Positions 1-7,415 of a DNA stretch of 7,415 nt are shown in pieces; the first letter of the stretch is position 1, and each line of letters starts with the position of its first letter. Position numbers and translations under genes: made by a program. The notes below the pieces were generated by a model that was not told where the DNA came from, searched no databases, and worked only from the letters and a program-made list of their open reading frames with translations. This stretch comes from a virus (Duplodnaviria > Heunggongvirae > Uroviricota > Caudoviricetes), in IMG/VR virus record IMGVR_UViG_2706794698_000011; one strand, 5' to 3'.

Positions 1-35
1 GGGGAATATCTCCCCGGCAGCCTTCAGGGAAAAAT

Positions 36-98
36 ATCATCAGATGGCTGCTTAAAAAAAGAACAAATGGTAGTGTCCGCTATTGCCAGTACACCTCA
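36..98. repeat. Left copy of 63-bp perfect inverted repeat (partner 7353-7415)
   Basis: Reverse complement of 7353-7415 is identical to 36-98; identity stops at pos 99 / 7352. The right copy is cut by the window end, so the repeat may be longer outward. Confidence 0.9.
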
Positions 99-297
99 TC
101 CATCACCGAAAAAAATTGGCTTTTACACCATTGGCGATAAAAGCATTTACCTGTATGACCTACGCCGCATGGATGAAATCATGGAGGCTCTTGATAATCG
201 TTCGTCGATGGATTGGTGTGTTGCTGTTCATGATATGAATGCAGGGTTTGATGAAAAGATTTTGTTCCCCTCATCAGTTGAAAGCACTGCGGGTTAA
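67..297 (+). CDS. Hypothetical small protein (76 aa)
   Basis: ORF with plausible enteric codon usage; no clear Shine-Dalgarno; first 10 codons lie inside the inverted repeat; its stop overlaps the SD of the next ORF. Confidence 0.4.
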   Translation: MVVSAIASTPHPSPKKIGFYTIGDKSIYLYDLRRMDEIMEALDNRSSMDWCVAVHDMNAGFDEKILFPSSVESTAG

Positions 298-307
298 GGA
301 GTAACAC

Positions 308-475
308 ATGACCACTATTACCAAAGAACGTATTGAATTGTTCATTAAAAACCCGCTTGAAAACGGGCTTACCCGTGGTGAACAAATGGAACTGGCACGG
401 ATTGCGCTGGCATCGCTGGAAGCAGAGCCGGTTGTGTTCTGGTTTGAAAAATATCAAGAAGGGGCTACGGCATGA
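308..475 (+). CDS. Hypothetical small protein (55 aa), paralogous to the next ORF
   Basis: ATG at 308 preceded by AGGAG (297-301); stop overlaps the next start as ATGA (472-475); shares an N-terminal MTT(I/F)T(K/R)E and an IAL(A/V)SL(E/A)AEP motif with ORF 472-816. Below the 60-aa cutoff of the ORF track. Confidence 0.55.
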
Positions 476-816
476 CGACTTTTACCAGAGAGCAGTTAAT
501 AGCTCACGCAGAGGAGACTATTGAAGCACAGAGACTGTGCATACCGGGCACAATCGACCATGACATCATCCGCACATATAAGATGGATATTGCTGTTCTG
601 GAAATCGCACTGGTATCGCTGGCAGCAGAGCCAGCCGGTAAATTGCATGAATACAAACCAGTGGGATATCAGCGTCTGGTCGATGAGTTAACCATGCTGG
701 TAAAGCAGTTAACCTGGCAACTGAGGAAAGCGAAGCCAGACTGCAAATTACCGGATAAGGCGATGAGTTATCTGGAGCGGAACGGACTGATAAGCGTGGA
801 GGATATTTTACGATGA
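472..816 (+). CDS. Hypothetical phage protein (114 aa)
   Basis: ORF in the track; start overlaps the upstream stop (ATGA); shared motif with ORF 308-475 suggests tandem duplication. Confidence 0.6.
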
Positions 817-896
817 CCTGGCCTGAAGCATTAACAACGGTAGGAATTGCGATGGCGGTGGCGCTGGTGGTGTATTCGATTTGCCGCTGGGGATAA
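813..896 (+). CDS. Putative 27-aa hydrophobic (single transmembrane-like) peptide
   Basis: ATG 813 overlaps the upstream stop (ATGA); GGAGG at 798-802; sequence [27 protein letters not shown] is mostly hydrophobic. Confidence 0.4.
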
Positions 897-903
897 AAAC
901 GGT

Positions 904-931
904 TTGCGGGAAAAGGAGAGTTAAGTAGAAT
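904..931 (+). promoter_or_regulatory. Candidate sigma70 promoter of the hok mRNA
   Basis: -35 TTGCGG (904-909), 16-nt spacer, -10 TAGAAT (926-931); predicted start near 938, giving an mRNA of about 415 nt to the terminator at 1353. Confidence 0.5.
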
Positions 932-999
932 TGCAGCGGGTGCTTGAGGCTATCTGTCTCAGGCATGAACACCAAAAGGCAGATAGAGAAAAGCCCCAG

Positions 1000-1059
1000 T
1001 TAACATTACGCGTCCGGCAAGACGCTTAACATTAATCTGAGGCTCAATCTATGAACGGC
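1000..1059 (-). ncRNA. sok: Candidate Sok-like antisense RNA (approximate ends)
   Basis: Minus-strand promoter inside mok: -35 TTGCCT (complement of 1089-1094), 17-nt spacer, -10 TAACCT (complement of 1066-1071); transcript would cover the mok start and SD; hairpin 1010-1025 on the antisense strand. Ends inferred, not measured. Confidence 0.4.
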
Positions 1060-1263
1060 AAATCTAGGTTAGCCTCTTACGTGCCGAAAGGCAAGGAGAA
1101 GCAGGCTATGAAGCAGCAAAAGGCGATGTTAATCGCCCTGATCGTCATCTGTTTAACCGTCATAGTGACGGCACTGGTAACGAGGAAAGACCTCTGCGAG
1201 GTACGAATTCGAACCGGCCAGACGGAGGTCGCTGTCTTCACAGCTTACGAACCTGAGGAGTAA
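1051..1263 (+). CDS. mok: mok-like overlapping reading frame (modulator of killing)
   Basis: 70-codon ORF whose last 51 codons are hok in the same frame; GAGG at 1039-1042; architecture matches the hok/mok/sok loci. Confidence 0.6.
   Translation: MNGKSRLASYVPKGKEKQAMKQQKAMLIALIVICLTVIVTALVTRKDLCEVRIRTGQTEVAVFTAYEPEE
1108..1263 (+). CDS. hok: Hok/Gef-family type I toxin (51 aa)
   Basis: MKQQKAMLIALIVICLTVIVTALVTRKDLCEVRIRTGQTEVAVFTAYEPEE carries the Hok signature (TM helix, TRK.LCE.R.R.G..EVA.F.AYE); AGGAG at 1094-1098. Confidence 0.9.
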   Translation: MKQQKAMLIALIVICLTVIVTALVTRKDLCEVRIRTGQTEVAVFTAYEPEE

Positions 1264-1332
1264 GAGACCAGGCGGGGGAGAAATCCCTCGCCACCTCTGA
1301 TGGGGCAGGCATCCTCAATGCACCCACACTTA

Positions 1333-1353
1333 ACCCGCTTCGGCGGGTTTTTG
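1333..1353 (+). terminator. Intrinsic terminator of the hok mRNA
   Basis: 6-bp stem ACCCGC/GCGGGT with TTCG loop followed by a T-run (1348-1360). Confidence 0.8.
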
Positions 1354-1483
1354 TTTTTATTTTCAACGCGTTTGAAGTTTTAGATGGTGCCGGAATAGAA
1401 TCAAAAATACTTAAGTAGCGCGCAGGGAGAAGAGGGATGGACCCCGAACAGGGGAGTGCTATTTATCTGGAAGGATTCTGTTG

Positions 1484-1765
1484 ATGAAAATCGAAGAATT
1501 ACGTGAAATTTTTAGTGAAGATGGCCTCTATACTGTGCGCGTTGAGAATGGCGCTATTGTCAGCCACTGCCTTCCAGACTACACAATTCTGATAATTCAG
1601 CCGTCTTTGCCAGCAGGCACGGGCGGCGCTCTCACGCATTTAAATCTGATTGGTACCAGCATCCCCCATGCACTGAAGAACAGGCCGAATGGCTCATTCA
1701 GTGTTACCGCAGGCGCGGATGCGAGGTTAAAAAAGCCCTTAGCCTCGACTACCGTCACTGGATAA
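1484..1765 (+). CDS. Hypothetical small protein (93 aa in the zero frame; possible 118-aa form ending at 1839 after a -1 shift at 1729-1735)
   Basis: ATG 1484 with AAGGA 8 nt upstream; the -1 frame is open from 1546 to a TAA at 1837-1839 that overlaps the next gene start (TAATGTG). Confidence 0.55.
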   Translation: MKIEELREIFSEDGLYTVRVENGAIVSHCLPDYTILIIQPSLPAGTGGALTHLNLIGTSIPHALKNRPNGSFSVTAGADARLKKPLASTTVTG

Positions 1766-1840
1766 TCTCCGTCAGGCTCCCTTACTCCGAACGGCCAACG
1801 CGTCCGTCCCGCACATTCCAGCAACGGATCTGGAGGTAAT

Positions 1841-2899
1841 GTGCGGGTATTACTTCGACCTGTTCTGGTACCGGAACTCGGTCTGGTTATCGTTAAGCCA
1901 GGCCGTGAATCAATGTCAGCATTCCATAACGGCAGAATACTGGTGGAGCCGGAACCAAAAAGCATGCGTAATCTGCCGTCCGGGGTCGTTCCTGCCGCTC
2001 GCCAGCCGCTGGTGGAAGACAAAACATTGCTGCCGTTTTTCAGTAACGCACGGGTGATTCGTGCTGCTGGTGGTGCTGGTGCATTGTCTGACTGGCTGTT
2101 GCGCCATATTAAATCCTGCCAGTGGCCACACGGCGATTATCATCACAGCGAAACCGTCATTCACCGTTATGGTACCGGCGCAATGGTGTTGTGCTGGCAC
2201 TGCGACAACCAGCTGCGTGACCAGACATCCGAATCACTCGAGCAACTTGCTCATCAAAACCTGTCAGCATGGATGATTGACGTCATCGGTCACGCAATAA
2301 GCGGTACGCAGGAGCGTGAATTATCTCTGGCTGAATTATCCTGGTGGGCGGTCCGCAATCAGGTGGCGGACGCGCTACCGGAAGCGGTATTACGTCGTTC
2401 GCTGGGGTTGCGTGCGGAAAAAATTCGCTCTGTGTACAGTGAAAGCGACATCATACCGGGAGAGCAGACAGCCACCAGCATACTGAAGCAGCGCACAAAA
2501 AATATTGCGTTACTGCCTCACGTCCACCAGCAACAGAACCCACCACAGGAAAAGACGGTGGTCAGCATTGCCGTTGATCCGGAGTCACCGGCTCAGTATC
2601 TCCAGCGCCAGAAATCACAACGGGAAGAGATGCCTGTATACACGCGCTGGGTAAAAACGCAGAAATGCATGACGTGTGGCAATCAGGCAGATGATCCGCA
2701 TCACATCATTGGTCATGGACTGGGAGGGATGGGAACAAAGGCTGATGATTTGTTTGTTATTCCGTTATGCCGTAAATGCCGTAACGAACTACATGCCGGA
2801 GTAAAAGATTTTGAAGAGAAACACGGCAGTCAGCTGTTGTTGCTGATTCGTTTTTTAATGCACGCGAGAAATTCGGGTGTTCTGAAGTGGAAAGCATAA
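1841..2899 (+). CDS. DUF968/NinG-like phage protein with C-terminal Cys/His (HNH or zinc-ribbon-like) cluster, 352 aa
   Basis: Long ORF with enteric codon usage; GTG 1841 preceded by GGAGG (1832-1836); C-terminus CMTCGNQADDPHHIIGHGLGGMGTKADDLFVIPLCRKCRNELH resembles the metal-binding motif of NinG/YbcO-type phage proteins. Family assignment is from memory. Confidence 0.6.
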   Translation: MRVLLRPVLVPELGLVIVKPGRESMSAFHNGRILVEPEPKSMRNLPSGVVPAARQPLVEDKTLLPFFSNARVIRAAGGAGALSDWLLRHIKSCQWPHGDYHHSETVIHRYGTGAMVLCWHCDNQLRDQTSESLEQLAHQNLSAWMIDVIGHAISGTQERELSLAELSWWAVRNQVADALPEAVLRRSLGLRAEKIRSVYSESDIIPGEQTATSILKQRTKNIALLPHVHQQQNPPQEKTVVSIAVDPESPAQYLQRQKSQREEMPVYTRWVKTQKCMTCGNQADDPHHIIGHGLGGMGTKADDLFVIPLCRKCRNELHAGVKDFEEKHGSQLLLLIRFLMHARNSGVLKWKA

Positions 2900-3280
2900 A
2901 TGACCGAGCGCATAGAATTTGTTTTACCTTACCCGCCGACGGTGAACACTTACTGGCGTCGTCGTGGCAGCACATATTTTGTATCAAAAGCCGGGGAGCG
3001 TTATCGCCGGGCAGTGGCGCTTATTGTTCGCCAGCAGCGGCTGAAATTAAGCCTGTCCGGAAGGTTGGCAATAAAAATTATTGCAGAACCACCGGATAAG
3101 CGCCGCCGTGACCTGGACAATATTCTGAAAGCGCCGCTGGATGCGCTGACGCATGCGGGGTTGCTAATGGACGATGAGCAGTTTGATGAAATCAATATCG
3201 TTCGTGCTCAGCCAGTATCTGGTGGACGTCTGGGGGTGAAGATTTATCCCATAATGCTTGAAGGGCAGGTCAAAAAATGA
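2900..3280 (+). CDS. rusA: RusA-family Holliday junction resolvase (126 aa)
   Basis: LPYPPTVN...PDKRRRDLDNILKAPLDALTHAGLLMDDEQ matches RusA conserved blocks including the catalytic acidic residues (DLDN, DD); start abuts the upstream stop. Confidence 0.85.
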   Translation: MTERIEFVLPYPPTVNTYWRRRGSTYFVSKAGERYRRAVALIVRQQRLKLSLSGRLAIKIIAEPPDKRRRDLDNILKAPLDALTHAGLLMDDEQFDEINIVRAQPVSGGRLGVKIYPIMLEGQVKK

Positions 3281-4026
3281 AACTGGAAGATTTACCGAAA
3301 TACTACTCCCCAAAATCCCCCGGCCTGACTGATGCATCGGCCTCAACGTCGAAAGATGCGCTGAGTATCACTGATGTGATGGCCGCGCAGGGCATGACAC
3401 AGAATCGGGCTGAGATGGGGGTTTCTGCGTTCCTTGGGAAAATGGGCATTAGTATGAATGACAGAGAGCGGGCAACAGAATTGCTGACAGAATATGCACT
3501 CAGTCGGTGTGATCGCGTGGCGGCGTTAAGAAAACTCCCGGCAGAAATAAAACCGGCAGTGATGCGTATTATGGCTTCGTATGCGTTTGAAGATTATGCC
3601 CGTAGCGCGGCGAGCAAAAAACANNNNNNNNNNNNNNNNNNNNNNNNNNNNNNNNNNNNNNNNNNNNNNNNNNNNNNNNNNNNNNNNNNNNNNNNNNNNN
3701 NNNNNNNNNNNNNNNNNNNNNNNNNNNNNNNNNNNNNNNNNNNNNNNNNNNNNNNNNNNNNNNNNNNNNNNNNNNNNNNNNNNNNNNNNNNNNNNNNNNN
3801 NNNNNNNNNNNNNNNNNNNNNNNNNNNNNNNNNNNNNNNNNNNNNNNNNNNNNNNNNNNNNNNNNNNNNNNNNNNNNNNNNNNNNNNNNNNATATGCGAG
3901 GTGACAAACCAGATAACACGCGCGTCATGGGAAAAAACAGTTAAGAAATTTTATGATGCGCTGGTGACCCGGTTTGATATTGAAGAAGCATGGGCTGAGC
4001 GGCAGTTAAAAAAGGTAACTAGGTAA
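3277..4026 (+). CDS. Q: Lambda-Q-family late antitermination protein (central 268 nt masked)
   Basis: N-terminus KYYSPKSPGLTD...DVMAAQGM and C-terminus KTVKKFYDALVTRFDIEE...KKVTR parallel lambda Q (FHSPKSP..., TVKPLYDALV...AVTR); ATGA overlap with rusA; frame is maintained across the mask 3624-3891. Confidence 0.8.
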   Translation: MKLEDLPKYYSPKSPGLTDASASTSKDALSITDVMAAQGMTQNRAEMGVSAFLGKMGISMNDRERATELLTEYALSRCDRVAALRKLPAEIKPAVMRIMASYAFEDYARSAASKKXXXXXXXXXXXXXXXXXXXXXXXXXXXXXXXXXXXXXXXXXXXXXXXXXXXXXXXXXXXXXXXXXXXXXXXXXXXXXXXXXXXXXXXXXXICEVTNQITRASWEKTVKKFYDALVTRFDIEEAWAERQLKKVTR

Positions 4027-4031
4027 CAAGG

Positions 4032-4059
4032 TTGATTTTTCCGGAATCTGTGGTAAATT
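4032..4059 (+). promoter_or_regulatory. Candidate late promoter (pR'-like) with probable Q-utilisation region just downstream
   Basis: -35 TTGATT (4032-4037), 16-nt spacer, extended -10 TGG-TAAATT (4051-4059), placed immediately after Q as in lambdoid phages. Confidence 0.5.
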
Positions 4060-4107
4060 CGTTATAACGATGGGCGTTTTATGCCTGACGTTAGAAGAGT
4101 TTCTACA

Positions 4108-4131
4108 ACCCGCCGCCGAGCGGGTTTTTTA
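4108..4131 (+). terminator. Intrinsic terminator (tR'-like) downstream of the late promoter
   Basis: Stem ACCCGC/GCGGGT (4108-4113 / 4120-4125) with a 6-nt loop, followed by TTTTTT. Confidence 0.75.
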
Positions 4132-4250
4132 TGACTGAAATCGCGTCAGTACAGTAAACGCGCTGGTGGCGGTGAATACCTGTCTTTCAGCTTGCTGGCT
4201 TTTTCGACAAGAGTTATTGGTGTGTCACGTTAACCGGAAAAGGAAAAGAC

Positions 4251-4448
4251 ATGCTAAAACAGCAGGATATGACAGAAACCGCCAGAGTGGTGTTTAATGA
4301 ATTAAGCGTTACCGAACCGGCGACAGTCGGGGAGATAGCGCAGAATACTTACCTTTCACGCGAACGCTGCCAGTTAATACTGACCCAGCTGGTTATGGCG
4401 GGTCTGGCAGACTATCAGTTCGGTTGTTACAGACGCCTTCCGCAGTGA
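4251..4448 (+). CDS. Small putative winged-helix DNA-binding protein (65 aa), possibly PapI/FaeA-like
   Basis: AAAGGAAAAG RBS; TVGEIAQNTYLSRERCQLILTQLVMAGLA resembles a helix-turn-helix recognition region; family resemblance is by eye only. Confidence 0.5.
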   Translation: MLKQQDMTETARVVFNELSVTEPATVGEIAQNTYLSRERCQLILTQLVMAGLADYQFGCYRRLPQ

Positions 4449-4461
4449 AGGCTTTTTTATT
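4435..4461 (+). terminator. Intrinsic terminator overlapping the stop codon of ORF 4251-4448
   Basis: Stem GCCTTC/GAAGGC (4435-4440 / 4447-4452), loop CGCAGT, followed by TTTTTTATTT. Confidence 0.75.
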
Positions 4462-4476
4462 TGTGGTAAATGGGCG

Positions 4477-4505
4477 GCTGGTGGGTGTTAGGGGCACCCA
4501 CCAGC
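4477..4505. repeat. Perfect 11-bp stem-loop carrying a Chi octamer on each arm
   Basis: GCTGGTGGGTG (4477-4487), loop TTAGGGG, CACCCACCAGC (4495-4505); no downstream T-run. Confidence 0.7.
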
Positions 4506-4858
4506 CATCTGCTCATGCGTTGGGTTCACAAGCAAACCTCAGGCCCACTGCTTTGCGCAAAAGCAGAATGAGCCTATCAGAGACAGGCTTAATGATCCAT
4601 GCTTAATANNNNNNNNNNNNNNNNNNNNNNNNNNNNNNNNNNNNNNNNNNNNNNNNNNNNNNNNNNNNNNNNNNNNNNNNNNNNNNNNNNNNNNNNNNNN
4701 NNNNNNNNNNNNNNNNNNNNNNNNNNNNNNNNNNNNNNNNNNNNNNNNNNNNNNNNNNNNNNNNNNNNNNNNNNNNNNNNNNNNNNNNNNNNNNNNNNNN
4801 NNNNNNNNNNNNNNNNNNNNNNNNNNNNNNNNNNNNNNNNNNNNNNNNNNNNNNNNNN

Positions 4859-5661
4859 CATCTGATATCGAAATCATGATGCGTGAACGCTTCAGTGTGC
4901 TGAACCATATTATCTGGGCGAAGCCGTCCGGACGCTGGAACGGATGCAACAAGGAAAGCCTGCGGGCGTATTTCCCCGCCACAGAGCGCATTCTGTTCGC
5001 GGAACATTATCAGGGGCCGTATCGTCCGAAAGATGCCGGGTATGCGGCGAAGGGCAGTGCACTGAAACAGCATGTGATGGCCCCGCTGATTTCTTACTTT
5101 CGTGATGCGCGAGCTGCCCTGGGGATAACGGCAAAACAGATTGCAGATGCCACAGGAAAGAAAAACATGGCGTCGCACTGGTTCAGTGCCGGTCAGTGGC
5201 AGTTGCCGAATGAAAGCGATTATCTGAAATTACAGGCGCTGTTTGCCCGGGTGGCAGAAGAGAAGCATCGGCGTGGTGAACTGGAAAAGCTCCACCACCA
5301 GCTGGTGGATACGTATACCTCACTGAACCGGCAGTATGCGGAGCTGCTGAGTGAATATAAACATCTGCGGCGGTATTTTGGCGTGACGGTGCAGGTGCCG
5401 TATACCGATGTGTGGACGCATAAACCGGTGCAGTTCTATCCCGGGAAACATCCGTGCGAAAAACCGGCAGAAATGCTGCAGCAGATAATCAGCGCTAGCA
5501 GTCGTCCGGGTGACCTGATTGCAGATTTTTTCATGGGGTTGGGTTCGACAGTGAAAGCGGCACTGGCGCTCGGGCGTCGTGCAATTGGCGTTGAGCTGGA
5601 GACTGAACGTTTTGAGCAGACGGTTCGGGAAGTACAGGATTTAGTCAGCCAGAACGGATGA
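4859..5661 (+). CDS. DNA amino-methyltransferase (N6-adenine/N4-cytosine type), 3' portion; N-terminus inside mask 4609-4858
   Basis: HPCEKP followed by DFFMGLGST (FxGxG AdoMet motif) near the C-terminus, the arrangement of beta-class amino-MTases; frame is open back to the mask with no start codon between 4492 and 4608, so the start is probably masked. Confidence 0.75.
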
Positions 5662-5700
5662 TATTGAAGAATTAATTACGCGTCGTTATTATGCGGCTCC

Positions 5701-5776
5701 CGGCCCTTTAGCTCAGTGGTGAGAGCGAGCGACTCATAATCGCCAGGTCGCTGGTTCAAATCCAGCAAGGGCCACC
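5701..5776 (+). tRNA. tRNA with CAU anticodon, closest by eye to tRNA-Ile2 (lysidine) of the ileX type; tRNA-Met not excluded
   Basis: Full cloverleaf can be drawn: acceptor GGCCCTT/AAGGGCC, D-arm GCTC...GAGC, anticodon loop CTCATAA, T-arm GCTGG-TTCAAAT-CCAGC, 3' ACCA. Confidence 0.85.
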
Positions 5777-5783
5777 ATCACAT

Positions 5784-5818
5784 ACCGCCATTAGCTCATC
5801 AGGAAAGAGCGCCAGCCT
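5784..5818 (+). tRNA. Probable 5' part of a second tRNA running into mask 5819-6068
   Basis: TAGCTC D-stem with GAGC partner (5793-5796 / 5806-5809), then CCAGC-CT consistent with an anticodon stem and C32-U33; anticodon masked. Confidence 0.35.
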
Positions 5819-6148
5819 NNNNNNNNNNNNNNNNNNNNNNNNNNNNNNNNNNNNNNNNNNNNNNNNNNNNNNNNNNNNNNNNNNNNNNNNNNNNNNNNNN
5901 NNNNNNNNNNNNNNNNNNNNNNNNNNNNNNNNNNNNNNNNNNNNNNNNNNNNNNNNNNNNNNNNNNNNNNNNNNNNNNNNNNNNNNNNNNNNNNNNNNNN
6001 NNNNNNNNNNNNNNNNNNNNNNNNNNNNNNNNNNNNNNNNNNNNNNNNNNNNNNNNNNNNNNNNNNNNTTTTAAATACTTCACAATTCAGGCGGTTGACT
6101 GTTGTCTGGTTTGCGGGGAGTTTGTTAAAAGAAACTGGCATGGTGAAT

Positions 6149-6292
6149 CCCCCTGTGCGGAGGGGCAATCAGCGAGTAGGTATATGGGATAATCGCGGAT
6201 TCAGGTGCTGGTACTGAATTCACCGGGAGGCACCCGGCATCATGCAATGGCACATAGCGCCACTCTCCAGCCCTCTCCGGAGGGGCTTTTCT
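6149..6292 (+). other. GC-rich hairpin-dense non-coding stretch (candidate structured RNA or regulatory leader)
   Basis: Four local hairpins (6150-6165, 6197-6221, 6223-6237, 6270-6286), the last followed by CTTTTCT; no ORF over 30 codons on either strand. Confidence 0.3.
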
Positions 6293-6681
6293 GTGCCGGA
6301 TACATCACAGTTTCTGGAACCTTAGGTACTACAGTATCAGTCAGGGTGCTATATTTTCAGATGTGATGAAAGCCTGTCAGCAGGCAGGGCGTATCGGAAA
6401 TGACCCAGTAGAGAAAACNNNNNNNNNNNNNNNNNNNNNNNNNNNNNNNNNNNNNNNNNNNNNNNNNNNNNNNNNNNNNNNNNNNNNNNNNNNNNNNNNN
6501 NNNNNNNNNNNNNNNNNNNNNNNNNNNNNNNNNNNNNNNNNNNNNNNNNNNNNNNNNNNNNNNNNNNNNNNNNNNNNNNNNNNNNNNNNNNNNNNNNNNN
6601 NNNNNNNNNNNNNNNNNNNNNNNNNNNNNNNNNNNNNNNNNNNNNNNNNNNNNNNNNNNNNNNNNNNNNNNNNNNNNNNNN

Positions 6682-6981
6682 TTGCAGAGTGCAACGGTTA
6701 TTAAAGCATTCATTCAATACGTTATCTGTATTTGTAGGGCATTCCTGGCTATTTTTGATTGAATTCCAGAATGTTTTATTGAATGGTACTACGTTGTAAA
6801 TGGTTACAGGTAGCACTTTGTTATTGAGCATGATGCCTGTGTGAGTCAGTGTAAATATACTTTCAGGAGGTAAGAAAGCATCCGATTGATACCAGATTAT
6901 TAATTTTATTTTACTCCATATGACTGAAAAAGATATTCCGCATGATGGCTGGATAACTGTATCAATCACAATCCACTTCAT
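6682..6981 (-). CDS. AT-rich hypothetical protein (at least 100 aa visible; 3' part enters mask 6419-6681)
   Basis: ATG at 6981 with AAGGAAAC SD (complement of 6985-6992); about 35 percent GC versus over 50 percent around it; AT-biased codons (ATA, AAA, TTA, AAT); uninterrupted 100-codon ORF in AT-rich DNA. Confidence 0.6.
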
Positions 6982-7243
6982 TTAGTTTCCTTNNNNNNNN
7001 NNNNNNNNNNNNNNNNNNNNNNNNNNNNNNNNNNNNNNNNNNNNNNNNNNNNNNNNNNNNNNNNNNNNNNNNNNNNNNNNNNNNNNNNNNNNNNNNNNNN
7101 NNNNNNNNNNNNNNNNNNNNNNNNNNNNNNNNNNNNNNNNNNNNNNNNNNNNNNNNNNNNNNNNNNNNNNNNNNNNNNNNNNNNNNNNNNNNNNNNNNNN
7201 NNNNNNNNNNNNNNNNNNNNNNNNNNNNNNNNNNNNNNNNNNT

Positions 7244-7399
7244 GATGTTGTCAGGGCGGCGCCGCCGTCAGATCTTGCGGAAAAGCTGACACATAAACTG
7301 AAAGAGGGCTGGCAGCCGTTTGGTAGTCCGGTGGCCATAACCCCTTATACCCTGAGGTGTACTGGCAATAGCGGACACTACCATTTGTTCTTTTTTTAA
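7244..7399 (+). CDS. 3' end of a hypothetical protein (5' part inside mask 6993-7242)
   Basis: Open frame from the mask edge to TAA 7397-7399 with enteric codon usage (...KLKEGWQPFGSPVAITPYTLRCTGNSGHYHLFFF); the last 14 codons lie in the inverted repeat. Confidence 0.5.
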   Translation, partial: DVVRAAPPSDLAEKLTHKLKEGWQPFGSPVAITPYTLRCTGNSGHYHLFFF

Positions 7400-7415
7400 G
7401 CAGCCATCTGATGAT
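7353..7415. repeat. Right copy of 63-bp perfect inverted repeat (partner 36-98)
   Basis: Exact reverse-complement match to 36-98; contains the last 14 codons and stop of the + strand ORF ending at 7399. Confidence 0.9.

Follow-up and report, generated by a model that had tools for sequence, protein, structure and literature searches.

A phage tRNA cluster of the Stx-phage type downstream of Q in an IS600-bracketed prophage segment without a visible toxin gene

Gene content and mosaic structure of the segment

The window, i.e., the whole stretch of 7,415 nucleotides that was analyzed, contains tRNA genes in the late region of a prophage segment, at a position downstream of the antiterminator gene Q and of a N6_N4 DNA methylase gene and upstream of the esterase and lysis genes. 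At its two ends the window has the same IS600 terminus in inverted orientation, at 1–98 on the minus strand (100% identical to the IS600 ends in Shigella sonnei Ss046) and at 7353–7415 on the plus strand (TGAGGTGTACTGGCAATAGCGG..., named IS600 by the RefSeq annotation). Given the same terminus at both ends, the window resembles a whole short-read contig between two IS600 copies, and it looks like a complete one. A 76-aa ORF (67–297) begins inside the left IS600 end. The left part of the window also contains a hok/sok type I toxin-antitoxin module (938–1263, with Rfam sok at 112 bits in 938–1113 and Pfam HOK_GEF in the ORF 1051–1263), a DUF968 gene (1841–2899), and a RusA gene (2900–3280) located between DUF968 and Q. 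The Q gene itself (3277–4026, plus strand), masked in its middle part, matches PF03589 (Antiterm, E = 2.7e-23) and encodes 273 aa in Ss046.

Directly past Q, the sequence (4031–4133, plus strand) shows a putative late promoter, TTGATT followed by TAAATT, with an intrinsic, tR'-like terminator downstream; by comparison with lambda, the promoter may be of the pR' type. The terminator was detected at 12339–12358 of the Ss046 locus (L013), equivalent to 4107–4126 of the window. The TAAATT is followed by ATAACGAT before the terminator, and position 4063 is T in the window and C in S. sonnei. Such a layout might give rise to a short terminated RNA, of which examples are known from Stx phages. Further to the right there is a 65-aa ORF followed by a terminator-like hairpin (4251–4448, plus strand), a hypothetical protein in all the relatives including a Stx2a phage, and then the N6_N4 DNA methyltransferase gene (4599–5661, plus strand; PF01555, E = 9e-26), with its N-terminal part masked and a 352-aa orthologue in Ss046. 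The prophage rRNA methyltransferase of PMC10810198 was considered as the identity of this methylase and rejected, being of the MT-A70 family and found at another phage location, whereas the window gene belongs to PF01555.

Between the methylase and the first tRNA gene (ileZ) lies a candidate sigma-70 promoter (5664–5692, plus strand; TTGAAG, 17-nt spacer, TATTAT), found by a consensus scan, identical in sequence in Ss046, and ending 10 nt before ileZ. Its match to the consensus is weak and the scan gave no more sites than in shuffled sequence; the −10 hexamer does not vary among five aligned loci, one of them that of Escherichia coli CFT073, in which an IS200 takes the place of the methylase upstream of the tRNAs. 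The flank of this IS200 scores as STnc490 in Rfam.

To the right of the tRNA genes there is a sRNA of the STnc100 family with its own terminator (6109–6298, plus strand; 122.5 bits in Rfam RF02076, where the gathering score is 47, over the full model 1–206), a family of prophage sRNAs already described and related to PasD (bioRxiv 10.64898/2026.05.13.724894). Next comes iraM (6682–6981, minus strand), of which the first 100 codons are visible and the 3' end and promoter region are masked; the 100 visible residues score 143.1 bits with NCBIfam NF007393 (cut-off 121). IraM is an anti-adapter protein that stabilizes RpoS. This is the AT-rich gene that the preliminary description had noticed after the tRNAs, but it is found on the opposite strand, as an insert between STnc100 and the esterase gene, likewise in CFT073 and E. 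coli 042. The last gene is the DUF1737 N-terminal part of a nanS-p-type SASA esterase (7243–7352, plus strand; PF08410, E = 1.9e-12), cut by IS600.

Up to position 5818 the window is 99.9% identical, without indels, to a prophage of S. sonnei Ss046 (CP000038), with one mismatch and no gap in each of the segments 1–3623, 3892–4608, and 4859–5818. An exact-sequence search with the DUF968 protein (1841–2899) matched S. sonnei genomes only, Ss046 being one of them. To the right of the tRNA mask, the segment 6069–6418 shows six mismatches and no gap against Ss046, all of them within 6069–6109, and these six differing positions are CFT073-like, with 62/62 identity to CFT073 over 6069–6130. The similarity to CFT073 stops at 6290, with 6110–6418 identical to S. 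sonnei, and the iraM and DUF1737 parts are CFT073-like again at 99–100% (99% for iraM, 100% for 7243–7355). The window is a mosaic, S. sonnei-like up to 5818 and with the relatives switching to the right of the tRNA mask, and the crossover between Ss046-like and CFT073-like sequence falls within the masked positions 5819–6068. This exact mosaic was absent from complete E. coli genomes, and no match to the IS600/DUF1737 junction, the tRNA-to-STnc100 spacing, or the hybrid STnc100 region was returned by pattern scans of GTDB representative genomes and JGI metagenomes. The left IS600 junction is also present in Ss046, where IS600 and IS1 copies and only scattered prophage genes are found upstream of the segment. 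Ss046 and other S. sonnei contain the same remnant, but without iraM at the locus, and their right-hand IS600 lies between two STnc100 copies, whereas that of the window is inside the esterase gene.

Three runs of N interrupt the window (3624–3891, 4609–4858, and 5819–6068), with 268, 250, and 250 N, respectively, which correspond to 340, 246, and 169 nt in Ss046. This mismatch, together with the zero indels against Ss046 in ~5.6 kb of unmasked sequence and the frameshift that the run at 4609–4858 would cause in the methylase gene if taken at face length, indicates that the lengths of the N-runs are not true. Mask length in such windows is an unsafe guide to the hidden content.

The tRNA genes and the masked interval

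ARAGORN finds a single tRNA in the window, at 5702–5777 on the plus strand with anticodon CAT, and Rfam also accepts it (RF00005, gathering score 29, here 72.5 bits with E = 7e-15, full model 1–71), with A27–C43 as the one non-canonical pair of the alignment. The preliminary description had this gene one base off, at 5701–5776, and was right in placing it close to ileX, with 68/76 identical positions (89.5%) to ileX of E. coli K-12 against 54/77 (70%) to metT/metU. The gene includes an encoded CCA and is of the ileZ type, being 76/76 identical to the annotated ileZ of the Stx2a phage AP012536.1 and identical as well to the copies in Ss046, E. coli O121, and CFT073. Matches below the Rfam threshold (Plastid-ycf2, which is antisense of the tRNA, isrK, rsmX, P26, and Trp_leader) were taken as chance. 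Minimum-energy folds gave a cloverleaf for the argN type gene (see below) only, not for ileZ or argO, and covariance-model alignments were used instead.

ARAGORN names this CAU tRNA a tRNA-Met, and so do many Stx2 phage records, in which case it would be an elongator tRNA without AUA reading. We find this very unlikely, in view of the far lower identity to metT/metU than to ileX, the RefSeq annotation as tRNA-Ile, and the acceptor stem (GGCCCUU...AAGGGCC-A-CCA), which has C4–G69, C5–G68, and A73, where metT has U4 and A5. C4–G69 and C5–G68 are the pairs by which E. coli TilS tells tRNA-Ile2 from tRNA-Met (PMC11947777, PMC1635315). The marks of an initiator are also absent, with G1–C72 paired and C11–G24, not A11–U24, in the D stem. 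The identity to ileX, the TilS pairs, A73, and the lack of initiator marks together identify this gene as one for a tRNA-Ile2 with anticodon CAU, despite the ARAGORN label and that of many phage records.

The second tRNA begins at 5785, after a spacer of 7 nt (5778–5784), as had been proposed. It is probably a tRNA-Arg(UCG) of the argN type, of which the 5' 34 nt are visible (5785–5818, plus strand; CCGCCATTAGCTCATCAGGAAAGAGCGCCAGCCT) and the rest, including the anticodon, is inside the N-run 5819–6068; none of the visible bases differs from the 5' portion of the Ss046 tRNA-Arg(TCG). In Ss046 the equivalent interval contains the last 43 nt of tRNA-Arg(TCG), a 13-nt spacer, a tRNA-Arg(TCT), and a terminator (GGCTCGCTTTTGCGGGCC-TTTTTTTT), whose T-tail corresponds to the TTTT found at 6069–6072 of the window. 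The three tRNAs of the Ss046 locus score 72.5, 58.0, and 70.1 bits in Rfam, all of them above threshold. The rest of argN and exactly one more tRNA, Arg-TCT, were found in the interval of the six relatives read directly and also, by annotation, in the 60 best E. coli matches (ARAGORN predicts the same three tRNAs in E. coli O121, UTI89, and CFT073, and they are annotated in NMBU_W05E18, the Stx2a phage AP012536, and these 60 matches). We infer from these relatives, the only source for argO and the 3' part of argN in the window, that the mask probably contains the 3' 43 nt of argN, the 13-nt spacer, the 77 nt of argO, a tRNA-Arg(UCU), and the terminator hairpin.

It is possible that the hidden stretch is instead of the CFT073 type, with ~790 nt and an AT-rich insert with a DUF3927 ORF after argO. 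The argO terminator directly abuts TTTTAAAT in the Ss046 type, while the AT-rich insert intervenes in the CFT073 type; both types contain argO and neither of them a toxin gene. The preliminary description had used the 250-nt mask to gauge how many tRNAs are hidden, a measure that does not hold for an N-run that is not length-true (169 nt in Ss046). A fourth tRNA within the extra 81 N was considered and rejected, the other N-runs being also off their true length.

Compared to the host genes, K-12 ileX/ileY and argU have the same anticodons as tRNAs of the cluster, and the TilS pairs C4–G69 and C5–G68 are shared. The anticodon loop of argO is that of argU, but the overall identities are only 89.5% (ileX) and 72.7% (argU), and argN of Ss046 is 66–69% identical to the K-12 Arg tRNAs compared (argQ, argX, and argU), which gives 66–73% for the Arg tRNAs of the cluster. 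K-12 has no UCG tRNA-Arg, so argN adds an anticodon absent from the host. Among the prophages ileZ is invariant (76/76 in all the relatives examined) and argO nearly so (77/77 in three of four relatives; 97–100% for ileZ and argO), with flanking DNA diverged by 5–15%, while argN varies by 5–8% (92–95% identity). The argN changes among the O121, CFT073, Ss046, and AP012536 copies are mostly G–U or compensatory. The argN of CFT073 contains an A–C mismatch in its T stem and scores lower in Rfam, at 45.5 bits. Some argN copies may be decaying.

Comparison with Stx phages and the toxin slot

The kind of feature found here is already known, the ileZ-argN-argO tRNA cluster of Stx-type lambdoid phages. 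These names are those of the GenBank annotation of AP012536.1. tRNA genes after Q are common among lambdoid phages (PMC3636060), and SfI, Sf6, ST64T, and P21 likewise have them after Q and before the lysis genes, with the same proposed role of codon supply (PMC3636060), although theirs are Asn and/or Thr tRNAs, unlike those of the window in species and sequence. As far as the reference list of PMC3636060 goes, an ileX-like tRNA adjoining stx2 had been reported by Schmidt et al. in 1997. Of 5426 complete E. coli genomes, 3061 (56%) contain the 326-nt module, with as many as 13 copies in one genome, and so do 289 phage records, most of them of Stx2-converting phages; partial clusters, with tRNA-Ile only or Ile plus one Arg, are found in other E. 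coli copies. tRNA matches near Pas/STnc100 sRNAs have been described as not detected in phage genomes (bioRxiv 10.64898/2026.05.13.724894), contrary to the presence of this module, next to STnc100 and internal to the prophage, in the phage records mentioned.

The likeness to the cluster of Stx2 phages (933W, VT2-Sakai type; AP012536.1) extends from the 76/76 identity of ileZ and the same gene order to the surroundings. In AP012536 the order is 65-aa ORF, methylase, ileZ, argN, argO, stx2A, stx2B, STnc100, nanS-p, and holin. The window and phages of this type have in common the 65-aa ORF and the N6_N4 methylase upstream, at ~94% identity, a value that holds for the stretch from methylase to tRNAs in many Stx2a phages, and also STnc100 and the nanS-p esterase downstream. 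The comparison with Stx2 phages shows the same genes between Q and the tRNAs, and the Stx-phage-like layout without a visible toxin that had been described from the sequence stands, with a cluster of the ileZ/argN/argO type downstream of Q. The tRNAs do not follow Q directly, as the Q-tRNA order given in that description would have it, since the putative late promoter and terminator, the 65-aa ORF, and the methylase lie between. Other differences are a spacer of 7 nt in the window versus 9 nt in AP012536, 4/77 differing positions between argN of the nearest relative and that of AP012536, a Q allele of the 273-aa PF03589 type versus one of 113 aa in AP012536, and, unlike Stx2 phages, an iraM gene inserted ahead of the esterase gene in the opposite orientation and the IS600 copies that bracket the segment.

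The main difference is the absence of stx2AB between argO and STnc100, a slot that is masked in the window and was read in the nearest relative. No stxA or stxB was found in the visible sequence of the window, either among its ORFs with Pfam and NCBIfam or among the annotated features under the DNA matches, and the matches to Stx2 phages end where the visible part of argN ends. The slot from argO to STnc100 is empty in Ss046 (76 nt, mostly terminator), and in CFT073 (L003 7345–8000) it contains a 656-nt AT-rich insert without stx and with a 43-aa DUF3927 ORF. The hairpin-rich region that was thought to occupy the place of the toxin turned out to be the STnc100 sRNA. This family is found directly after stx2B in the Stx2a phage AP012536 (L014 7502–7717), so Stx2 phages carry STnc100 too and it is not a toxin replacement. 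The E. coli O121 prophage has two tandem STnc100 copies before nanS-p (L001 7170–7360 and 7638–7847). STnc100 is part of the conserved backbone around the toxin slot. Judging from these comparisons, the setting seems to be the remnant, bracketed by IS600 and without a toxin, of a prophage in a Shigella/E. coli genome.

Codon usage and the role of the cluster

The codons ATA, AGA, AGG, CGA, and CGG are served by scarce tRNAs in E. coli. These five codons, the ones read by the cluster, add up to 10.5 per 1000 codons in 42 K-12 core genes and to 41.8 in the plus-strand genes of the window, with similar values in the E. coli O121 prophage segment (41.1) and the Stx2a phage segment (38.5), i.e., they are ~4 times more common in prophage genes than in core genes. 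In stx2A, 15 of the 20 Ile codons are ATA. The downstream gene of the window, iraM, had been suggested as a place to look for such an enrichment, and the outcome was divided, as 5 of the 12 Ile codons visible in it are ATA (6/13 in CFT073), but there is a single Arg codon, which makes the two Arg tRNAs irrelevant to this gene. The high ATA content may be mere AT-richness. Considering the single Arg codon, the location on the opposite strand, and the overall AT-richness of iraM, its link to the tRNAs is weak.

Our preferred explanation, which we hold with high confidence, is that the feature is an ileZ-argN-argO operon, encoding tRNA-Ile2(CAU), tRNA-Arg(UCG), and tRNA-Arg(UCU), of a Stx-type lambdoid prophage, and that it raises the decoding of rare codons. 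The identities of the genes, their order, their context, and the codon bias are direct observations, and the standard account of rare-codon tRNA supply fits these data. The three tRNA genes would form a compact unit, with the candidate promoter 10 nt upstream and the intrinsic terminator after argO, that would also be included within the Q-dependent late transcription unit; from what is known of lambda, Q-modified RNA polymerase would be expected to read through the three terminator-like hairpins upstream. Once expressed, ileZ would have its C34 turned into lysidine by the host TilS, leading to charging with Ile and to the reading of AUA, while argN would read CGA/CGG and argO would read AGA/AGG. 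With five codons that are rare in core genes and ~4 times more common in prophage genes, the cluster would be expected to help in decoding phage genes and cargo genes, the latter including stx2A in the toxin-carrying relatives.

The state of the remnant bears on how much of this role may persist. Flanked by IS600 left and right and with a disrupted esterase gene, the remnant can no longer bring any advantage to phage late genes in this host, and the tRNA genes could be intact but idle, neutral passengers of a dead remnant whose role in late or toxin gene expression belongs to its time as a phage. The scattered prophage genes among IS600 and IS1 copies upstream of the segment in Ss046, the partial clusters of other E. 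coli, and the pseudo-tRNAs that have been reported (PMC13641118) go in the same direction. We regard this reading as unlikely, though it deserves serious consideration, because ileZ and argO have been kept at 76/76 in all the relatives examined and at 77/77 in three of four while their flanks diverged, and because a promoter-like site and a terminator of their own have been kept, even in CFT073 with its IS200 instead of the methylase. A host that retained the cluster under its own rather than phage selection would be a case of domestication, in which the decoding of AUA, AGA/AGG, and CGA/CGG would serve AT-rich acquired genes, such as the adjacent iraM or Shigella virulence genes. On this reading the cluster, still intact and with a promoter-like site and a terminator of its own, would have been kept in a remnant no longer able to make phage, next to an iraM with ~40–46% of ATA among its Ile codons. 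We consider this rather improbable.

Two further readings concern the nature of the tRNA genes themselves. Many prophages insert into tRNA genes, and tRNA matches near Pas/STnc100 sRNAs have been read as integration hot spots (bioRxiv 10.64898/2026.05.13.724894), from which the cluster could be seen as the remnant of a chromosomal integration site (attB/attL). This is extremely improbable. The cluster is flanked by the methylase on one side and by the esterase and lysis genes on the other, within the late region and not at a prophage end, and it keeps this position in the 289 phage records. A genome may have as many as 13 copies, and the genes are full-length and distinct from those of the host (66–73% to K-12 Arg tRNAs). 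Work on other phages has given rise to the idea that phage tRNAs mainly serve as replacements in the face of toxins or defence systems that cleave tRNAs, e.g., nucleases of the tRNA-Arg anticodon loop, rather than as a supply for rare codons. Here the anticodon loop of argO (CUUCUAA) is the same as in the host argU, by which a nuclease specific for this loop would not obviously be evaded, and the anticodons are exactly those for the codons that the phage genes use in excess, making this idea very unlikely for the present cluster.

Overall, the rare-codon supply reading remains the one that we favor, and the finding has little consequence beyond correct annotation. The proper label for the CAU tRNA, on which phage records are inconsistent, would be tRNA-Ile2 and not tRNA-Met, and the tRNA genes are best seen as an internal module of the phage, not as the scar of an integration site.
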